A model generated the notes under the pieces. That model made no database searches. It saw only the letters and a list, made by a program, of their open reading frames with translations, and had not been told where the DNA came from. Source: a virus (taxonomy: Duplodnaviria > Caudoviricetes). From it: a stretch of 64,000 nucleotides of DNA. The stretch's first letter is position 1; each line of letters starts with the position of its first letter. The position numbers were made by a program, and so were the translations under genes. The stretch is from positions 64,001 through 128,000 of the IMG/VR virus record IMGVR_UViG_3300015050_001523; one strand, given 5' to 3'. Shown here piece after piece: positions 35,151-35,294 of this stretch.

Positions 35151-35294
35151 TTCCTGCGACTGGACTCGAACCAGCATGTCCGCCTTAAGGAGCGTTAGTT
35201 TTACGCATGCAATTTCAATCAACGTATTATAACAAGGTAACGCGTATATGCTATAACATTGGTTGATAATAAAATTGCTTTAAACTACACAGGA
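35151..35294 (-). ncRNA. 144-nt tRNA-like RNA TL1 with long D-loop hairpin insertion
   Basis: TCCTGTG/CGCAGGA acceptor, GTTT/AAAC D-stem, GCTGG-TTCGAGT-CCAGT T arm; aberrant anticodon arm. Confidence 0.75.

Follow-up and report, generated by a model that had tools for sequence, protein, structure and literature searches.

The stretch of DNA analysed here (the window, 64,000 nucleotides) comprises bases 64001-128000 of a 322.5-kb phage record in IMG/VR, which has a G+C content of 33.6%, carries 37 tRNA genes according to ARAGORN and contains a T4-type gp23 capsid gene. Within a block of tRNA genes on the minus strand lies a tRNA-shaped gene, here called TL1, with position 1 at 35294 and the discriminator base A73 at 35151 (Table 1). 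These coordinates had been given correctly in an earlier annotation made from the letters alone (the sequence-only reading), and the strand is minus. TL1 begins after a 1-nt spacer behind tRNA-Gly(UCC) of the same block; next, with 0-2 nt between successive elements, come TL2, a 63-nt mini-element that resembles an acceptor stem plus T arm, the long hairpin E1 and tRNA-Glu. TL2 consists of an 8-bp acceptor-like stem, the box TAGTTTAA and a T-like hairpin with the loop CUCGUUA, and together with E1 it fills the gap between TL1 and tRNA-Glu; in Logan contigs from two runs, a G>A change at 35143 converts a C-G pair of its acceptor-like stem to U.G. A promoter-like site just upstream of tRNA-Ile is, judging from its consensus match, the probable start of the transcript containing TL1, and no terminator-like sites were found in 34500-36900, so that the block, as far as consensus matches indicate, would be read as one transcription unit. 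The five open reading frames (ORFs) flanking TL1 gave no Pfam matches, and no homologue was found for the 91-aa ORF downstream of it, which suggests that the segment around TL1 changes fast.

Table 1. Coordinates of TL1, its parts and the features discussed with it (window positions unless a record or contig is named)
Feature	Coordinates	Strand	Remark
TL1, whole tRNA-shaped gene	35151..35294	-	144 nt; CCA not encoded
Acceptor stem, 5' strand TCCTGTG	35288..35294	-	6/7 identical to Verrucomicrobiota tRNA-Asn
Acceptor stem, 3' strand CGCAGGA	35152..35158	-	Checked base by base
D stem, 5' strand GTTT, T8 A9 ahead	35282..35285	-	Checked base by base
D stem, 3' strand AAAC	35198..35201	-	Checked base by base
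D-loop hairpin	35209..35278	-	70 nt; RNAfold -20.0 kcal/mol, z -4.34; single copy
Anticodon-position arm	35181..35194	-	4-bp stem, 6-nt loop CCTTAA; no anticodon
T arm GCTGG-TTCGAGT-CCAGT	35159..35175	-	Canonical loop TTCGAGT; checked base by base
tRNA-Gly(UCC)	35296..35367	-	Ends one base ahead of TL1
TL2	35086-35148	-	Acceptor/T-like mini-element
E1	35001-35085	-	Long hairpin
tRNA-Glu(UUC)	34925..34998	-	Downstream limit of the block Gly / TL1 / TL2 / E1 / Glu
Sigma-70-type promoter-like site	35731..35759	-	TTGACA, 17 nt, TG-TATAGT; 11/12; consensus match only
T4 Rnl1-type RNA ligase	7154-7774	-	
Long tRNA-like element	63305-63420	+	116 nt
Long tRNA-like element	63427-63547	+	121 nt; weak match to rnaC model
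tRNA-like element outside the window	G000:C1:135059-135160	-	102 nt
T4 RNA C (species 1 RNA, rnaC)	NC_000866 70908-71046	tRNA strand	139 nt

Other unusual elements are present in the same genome. Two long tRNA-like elements stand side by side near the end of the window, in each of which a 7-bp acceptor stem and a canonical T arm enclose an interior that is not tRNA-like, and Rfam returned nothing for either of them; the second is the genome's best, yet weak, match to a covariance model of T4 rnaC (15.6 bits, E 0.03) and may therefore be the rnaC counterpart of this phage. The 102-nt element outside the window has a normal D arm and some 30 extra bases, and is read by ARAGORN with introns allowed as tRNA-Gln(ttg) with a 30-nt intron. 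One tRNA of the genome has a 9-nt anticodon loop. The RNA ligase that the sequence-only reading had mentioned is indeed encoded in the window and is of the T4 Rnl1 type, while Rnl2-type ligases are encoded elsewhere in the phage; T4 ligases of the Rnl1 and Rnl2 types mend cut tRNAs.

When every helix of TL1 was checked base by base, all of the 45 proposed base pairs were found intact, and each helix named in the sequence-only reading (D-loop hairpin, acceptor stem, anticodon-position arm, T arm) is present, as is a D stem. The 7 bp of the acceptor stem include one G.U pair, and the anticodon-position arm pairs CGCT with GGCG. The hairpin occupies TL1 positions 17-86 and comprises 9 + 6 + 10 = 25 bp (3 G.U) under a 14-nt apical loop, interrupted by one 2-nt bulge and one internal loop. 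Among the bases of the tRNA core, U8, A14, A21, G53-C61 and U54 U55 C56 with A58 are kept, and an A15-U48 pair is possible; G18 G19 are replaced by GCG, with the hairpin just ahead of that site, and the elbow of the molecule may be weakened as a result. The body has a G+C content of about 47%, against 33.6% for the genome. Six-nucleotide contacts between the loops were also considered: the complement of CCUUAA, which would allow a loop-loop contact like that of rnaC, is absent from the hairpin loop, a 6-bp match between UGCGUA in the D loop and UACGCG in the apical loop was rejected as about what chance would give by a rough count, and the 6-nt palindromes in the two loops (CCTTAAGG and ACGCGT) were regarded as not significant.

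RNAfold, run unaided on TL1, recovered the acceptor stem, the hairpin and the T arm. The whole fold has a z score of -3.86, and the hairpin alone one of -4.34, with none of 200 shuffles equally stable in either case. Composition-matched shuffles are the valid control for the hairpin: in a genome-wide scan of minimum free energy, 2.5% of the 70-nt windows fold equally well by raw energy, a figure that is uninformative because G+C-rich windows dominate it. The opposite strand of the 70-nt hairpin reaches only -11.1 kcal/mol (z -0.96), against -20.0 kcal/mol in the tRNA sense, because three of the hairpin pairs are G.U. This asymmetry indicates a feature of the tRNA strand at the level of RNA rather than a symmetric DNA palindrome.

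The likeness of the acceptor and T arms to bacterial tRNA-Asn, already noticed from the sequence, was confirmed by comparison with the GTDB reference genomes (one genome each of 185,579 species). The 3' terminal 23-mer of TL1, which comprises the T arm and the 3' strand of the acceptor stem, has five exact matches in this collection, in actinomycetes and one Verrucomicrobiota cell, all of them in tRNA-Asn(GTT) genes. Since this 23-mer is exclusive to tRNA-Asn(GUU) among the reference genomes, TL1 derives from a tRNA-Asn gene. Its acceptor 5' strand differs from that of the Verrucomicrobiota tRNA-Asn by a single transition that keeps a wobble pair. With bacterial tRNA-Asn(GUU), TL1 shares 13/14 of the acceptor stem, 16/17 of the T arm and U8 A9 G10; it differs in the 70-nt D-loop hairpin, the rebuilt 4-bp stem, GCG for G18 G19, A73 in place of the discriminator G73, and a 6-nt loop that lacks G34 and an in-register U33. 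From the Asn loop CUGUUAA, only UUAA is retained in the anticodon-position arm, where the new stem still pairs. TL1 goes unrecognised by tRNA models. The phage's own tRNA-Asn is unrelated to TL1 in sequence.

TL1 is very probably unable to decode, judging from the structure of its anticodon-position arm. The sequence-only reading had found a 6-nt loop to which no anticodon could be assigned, and the tRNA models agree: the Rfam tRNA model RF00005 gave no match at E<=10 on 35151-35294, whereas the three neighbouring tRNAs score 65-68 bits and at least 29 bits were taken as the mark of a canonical tRNA, and ARAGORN with default settings made no call. The 7-bp acceptor stem on a 5-bp T stem with a T loop of the form UUCRANY, as expected of a canonical tRNA, is found in TL1; in place of a 5-bp anticodon stem with a 7-nt loop containing U33, it has 4 bp and the 6-nt CCUUAA, and no register of this loop gives both U33 and the 2+3+2 layout. 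With the hairpin deleted, ARAGORN reports a tRNA at a lowered threshold only, and in that model the anticodon stem is mispaired and the anticodon, of 4 bases, cannot be assigned.

An intron in the D loop, as the sequence-only reading had proposed, does not account for the hairpin. Archaeal non-canonical tRNA introns likewise occupy D-loop positions and are marked by a bulge-helix-bulge, while TL1 has no such motif, and removal of its insert does not restore a tRNA. On inspection, the base of the hairpin was seen to be flush with single-stranded D-loop bases, in agreement with the sequence-only reading, in which no bulge-helix-bulge had been recognised, and both the PF01974 splicing endonuclease and RtcB are absent from the phage; an intron of the archaeal type was rejected for these flush junctions and for the lack of a phage splicing endonuclease. 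The reading as an intron-containing tRNA fails for these same reasons, and because taking the hairpin out leaves a 6-nt loop without an anticodon. The suggested ARAGORN run with the intron option did produce a call, albeit an unconvincing one, tRNA-Asp(atc) with a 59-nt intron, which was rejected for its 3-bp D stem, 3-nt D loop and all-A/U anticodon stem. A group I intron would be expected to exceed 200 nt and to bring a group I core into the anticodon loop, whereas TL1 carries a D-loop insert of 70 nt, and no intron family appeared in an Rfam scan of TL1 at E<=10. A tmRNA or a bacterial Y RNA (YrlA) was set aside as well, with no tmRNA called by ARAGORN and no such Rfam match at E<=10.

The closest known parallel comes from phage T4, whose RNA C and RNA D, known for half a century, have no function assigned to them. 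In the T4 genome, rnaD (119 nt) and rnaC (139 nt) come directly behind tRNA-Arg on the same strand. An alignment of rnaC across five genera gives a four-way junction in which 19 of the 46 pairs are compensatory, and the consensus consists of an acceptor-like stem, a canonical T arm that covaries, a long variable D-position arm and an anticodon-position hairpin with a loop of 6 nt. In the Klebsiella phage KaAlpha, the rnaC homologue lies between tRNA-Trp and tRNA-Gly. Both T4 RNAs are real late transcripts validated by Northern blotting, with an unknown role (PMC3014915, PMC9697503), and the function of RNA C in particular is described as unknown (PMC3014915). TL1 and T4 rnaC are similar in length (144 and 139 nt) and in their position in an array behind a tRNA on the same strand; both have a four-way junction, a canonical T arm, a D-position arm of 60-70 nt, no anticodon, and an anticodon-position hairpin whose 6-nt loop ends in AA. 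Outside the T arm the two share no sequence homology: a covariance model of TL1 (R1) gives 12 bits on rnaC, the rnaC model (R2) gave no match to TL1 at E<=10, and the invariant motifs of the rnaC family (5' CGGUUCGAGGA, loop CGUCAA and apical UUGACG) are all absent from TL1. The acceptor stem of rnaC contains two U.U mismatches, while that of TL1 is perfect; TL1 also keeps U8, A9 and a D stem of 4 bp and, unlike rnaC, has a clear tRNA-Asn ancestry. Given the missing motifs and model match, TL1 was classed as an analogue that would work like RNA C and not as a member of its family, and by this analogy it is best explained as the counterpart of T4 RNA C in design and position. Within the rnaC family itself (L038:1909-2047 and the alignment), the loop CGUCAA and the apical UUGACG are invariant and exactly complementary; that they stay so while the stems vary fits a loop-loop contact. 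One rnaC homologue is labelled 'tRNA-Lys' in GenBank (MK327946.1 68553-68690).

Elements of comparable length, about 115-145 nt, occur in other phages. Two pattern scans of metagenomes and IMG/VR (5' box GTAGTTTAA, 80-110 nt, T-loop box) recovered 21 distinct elements, 118-143 nt long, in which 6/7 or more acceptor pairs are formed (7/7 in 17 of them), most of them in phage contigs with tRNA arrays, and with full acceptor and T arms. In 20 of these 21 the D arm is normal and the insert lies in the anticodon or variable region, in contrast to the D-loop insert of TL1. When a larger set of fetched loci, 1.22 Mb in all, was surveyed, 674 tRNA-type elements came up, 55 distinct long ones among them, and the D-loop layout proved to be common only to TL1 and three others. 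L155:1528-1652, the remaining one of the 21 and present as a variant in L145, has the layout of TL1: its D stem is GUUU/AAAC, an insert of 57 nt precedes UGGUA, the 6-nt loop GUAAAA closes a further stem, the discriminator is A73 and, in L155, CCA is encoded; it sits directly after two tRNA-Asn genes. L145:1442-1571, on the minus strand of a metagenomic phage array of 20 tRNAs in 7.6 kb, is a perfect tRNA-Ile-type cloverleaf with a 23-bp D-loop hairpin and the 7-nt anticodon loop CUUGAAA, and is missed by ARAGORN. The third, L025:8217-8318 on the plus strand, found identically in L026 and L027, combines a D-loop hairpin with a 4-nt loop at the anticodon position and lies between tRNA-Asp and tRNA-Lys in a 251-kb distant relative. 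Some peculiarities of these arrays deserve mention in their own right: the L145 array also contains tRNA-Asn(att) and tRNAs left without an assigned anticodon by ARAGORN, which near L025:8217-8318 calls a tRNA whose anticodon has 4 bases, and four distant relatives (L004, L009, L028 and L031) carry tRNAs with a CUA anticodon, amber suppressors that ARAGORN labels 'Pyl', which hints at stop-codon recoding in the group.

In all four D-loop elements the insert precedes the position of G18 G19, in a pocket that varies in length among normal tRNAs and whose bases point outward. The hairpins of TL1 and L145:1442-1571 are unlike in sequence (1357 of 2000 shuffles score as well), from which it follows that they are unrelated, independent inserts at one permissive site. 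A man-made parallel is the 'tRNA scaffold' engineered for the expression of recombinant RNA in E. coli (PMC3753655), in which, as proposed for TL1, the tRNA body lends processing and stability to a foreign hairpin; there the insert replaces the anticodon stem, while that of TL1 is natural and lies in the D loop.

The homologue search that had been recommended brought to light identical copies of a single strain and no diverged TL1. TL1 is unchanged in Logan contigs from four DNA runs, which represent essentially one strain, and none of the sequence datasets listed as containing the TL1 stretch is an RNA dataset. In a blastn search of 50,697 GenBank phages, the 1.4-kb region matched only through its tRNA-Ile; exact and gapped TL1 patterns found nothing in IMG/VR; and blastn together with model R1, applied to 20 and then 52 records of relatives behind a first-look filter that limits sensitivity, returned ordinary tRNAs only. 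The closest relatives by capsid in IMG/VR are short fragments, too short to hold the TL1 region. The neighbouring 294-aa protein has a relative, 76% identical, next to a different array: at the place of TL1, L029:1098-1744 carries tRNA-Ile(tat), tRNA-Arg(tct) and an HNH endonuclease gene. The end of the L029 contig shows a further T-arm-like motif.

Taken together, we favour, with moderate confidence, the reading that TL1 evolved from a tRNA-Asn(GUU) gene and encodes a small, tRNA-shaped RNA that does not decode and serves as the carrier of a hairpin. Of the three readings offered at the outset, that of a carrier for a hairpin RNA is the one best supported, by anatomy and by the analogy with T4 RNA C; the decoy reading is unsupported. 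In favour of an RNA gene are the 45 intact pairs with a fold far better than that of shuffled sequences, the still-pairing rebuilt arm at the anticodon position and the recurrence of the D-loop hairpin site in other phage arrays; the identity of TL1 across the Logan runs also counts for it, within what is essentially one strain. The stability of the hairpin in the tRNA sense only argues for an RNA-level feature, and the array setting lends support by analogy, with TL1 adjoining tRNA-Gly as rnaD and rnaC adjoin tRNA-Arg in T4. Against it count the failure of the searches to find a diverged homologue, the missing rnaC motifs and model match, the differing array in the 76% relative, and GCG in place of G18 G19, which may weaken the elbow.

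As we picture it, TL1 would be co-transcribed with tRNA-Ile, tRNA-Gly and tRNA-Glu from the promoter-like site. Its 5' end would be released by RNase P, for which the U found at position -1 and the 12-bp acceptor/T minihelix appear suitable, and host enzymes would trim the 3' end and add CCA. The product would accumulate as a stable L-shaped RNA which, in this proposal, persists by being treated like a tRNA in the cell. Its working part would be the hairpin that projects from the elbow, either as a site at which a protein such as RNase III or a dsRNA-binding factor binds or cuts, or as bait. A broader and decidedly speculative extension is that phage tRNA derivatives with a hairpin in the D-loop pocket form a class of their own, not described so far, in which the tRNA shape engages host processing, and perhaps defence or repair, enzymes and the duplex acts as a bait, block or handle, for instance by sponging up RNase III or a defence nuclease that cuts tRNAs; TL1 (derived from tRNA-Asn, with a disabled anticodon) and L145:1442-1571 (Ile-like, with an intact loop) would then be independent inventions.

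Among the alternatives, the most durable is that TL1 is a dead duplicate of a tRNA-Asn gene which lost its anticodon loop, acquired a D-loop hairpin and is now drifting, possibly still cut by RNase P. We consider this unlikely on present evidence, though a serious contender, and it keeps that standing because no diverged TL1 homologue was found. It would account for a tRNA-Asn ancestry combined with a broken anticodon arm, A73 for G73 and GCG for G18 G19, and it fits the finding of TL1 in one strain only, the fast-changing segment with its small ORF without a homologue, the different array of the related phage and the many odd elements in the tRNA arrays of this phage group. Decay, however, would hardly leave 45 of 45 pairs intact, the rebuilt 4-bp arm at the anticodon position among them, and would not yield a 25-bp hairpin whose only departures on the transcribed strand are G.U pairs; the G+C content of the body, high for this genome, and the recurrence of the insertion site in independent elements also speak against it.

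TL1 might instead act only in cis, as punctuation at which RNase P and 3' processing cut free the neighbouring TL2, E1 and tRNA-Glu. The t-elements of plant mitochondria are a precedent for tRNA-like punctuation of this kind (PMC1920247), and the dense packing of Gly / TL1 / TL2 / E1 / Glu, with spacers of 0-2 nt, would suit it. We regard it as improbable: a minimal mimic of the acceptor and T arms would suffice for such a role, the neighbouring TL2 being just 63 nt long, and the 70-nt hairpin, the kept D stem and the anticodon-position arm would be left unexplained.

Less probable still is that the hairpin is a DNA-level feature, be it a mobile palindrome, a protein-binding palindrome or a cruciform, that landed in TL1 by chance. 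A MITE-like element is expected in several copies, in its own or other genomes, and the hairpin is present once in the phage genome. Its two-arm pattern was found neither in IMG/VR nor in the 185,579 reference genomes by exact-pattern scans, which diverged copies could escape. A DNA palindrome would moreover be symmetric, which the folding energies of the two strands are not. When an antisense target was sought, the best match to the hairpin elsewhere in the genome was an A/T-rich stretch of 14 nt (E 0.06). The sequence-only reading had held that it would be undone if the insert were a mobile palindrome found elsewhere, with the tRNA body decaying in relatives; the single copy and the absent pattern contradict the former, and as to the latter, the searches turned up no diverged relative bearing TL1 and hence none in which the body decays.

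That TL1 is a decoding tRNA, its hairpin spliced out or tolerated and its odd loop (8 nt if the closing U.G pair opens) reading a codon, is close to refuted: the ARAGORN call with the intron option, the Rnl1- and Rnl2-type ligases, the 9-nt anticodon loop elsewhere in the genome and the coexistence of a D-loop hairpin with an intact 7-nt anticodon loop in L145:1442-1571 could be cited for it, and they are outweighed by the missing RF00005 match, the mispaired, low-threshold model of the hairpin-less sequence, the lack of a U33 register and of a bulge-helix-bulge, PF01974 or RtcB, and the implausible D arm and all-A/U anticodon stem that the ARAGORN call requires.

RNAs of this kind have been known since the 1970s; what is new in TL1 is the ancestry from tRNA-Asn and the recurrent D-loop insertion site. 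Gene finders miss or mislabel such RNAs, as with TL1 called 'tRNA-Asp' and rnaC called 'tRNA-Lys', and counts of phage tRNAs are distorted accordingly. Were TL1 only a pseudogene, the finding would be an ordinary one. If RNAs of the TL1 type work, tRNA-shaped non-decoding RNAs would be general in the tRNA arrays of large phages and not an oddity of T4, and the D-loop-hairpin layout, derived from at least two types of tRNA, would offer a defined structure for tests of binding partners.
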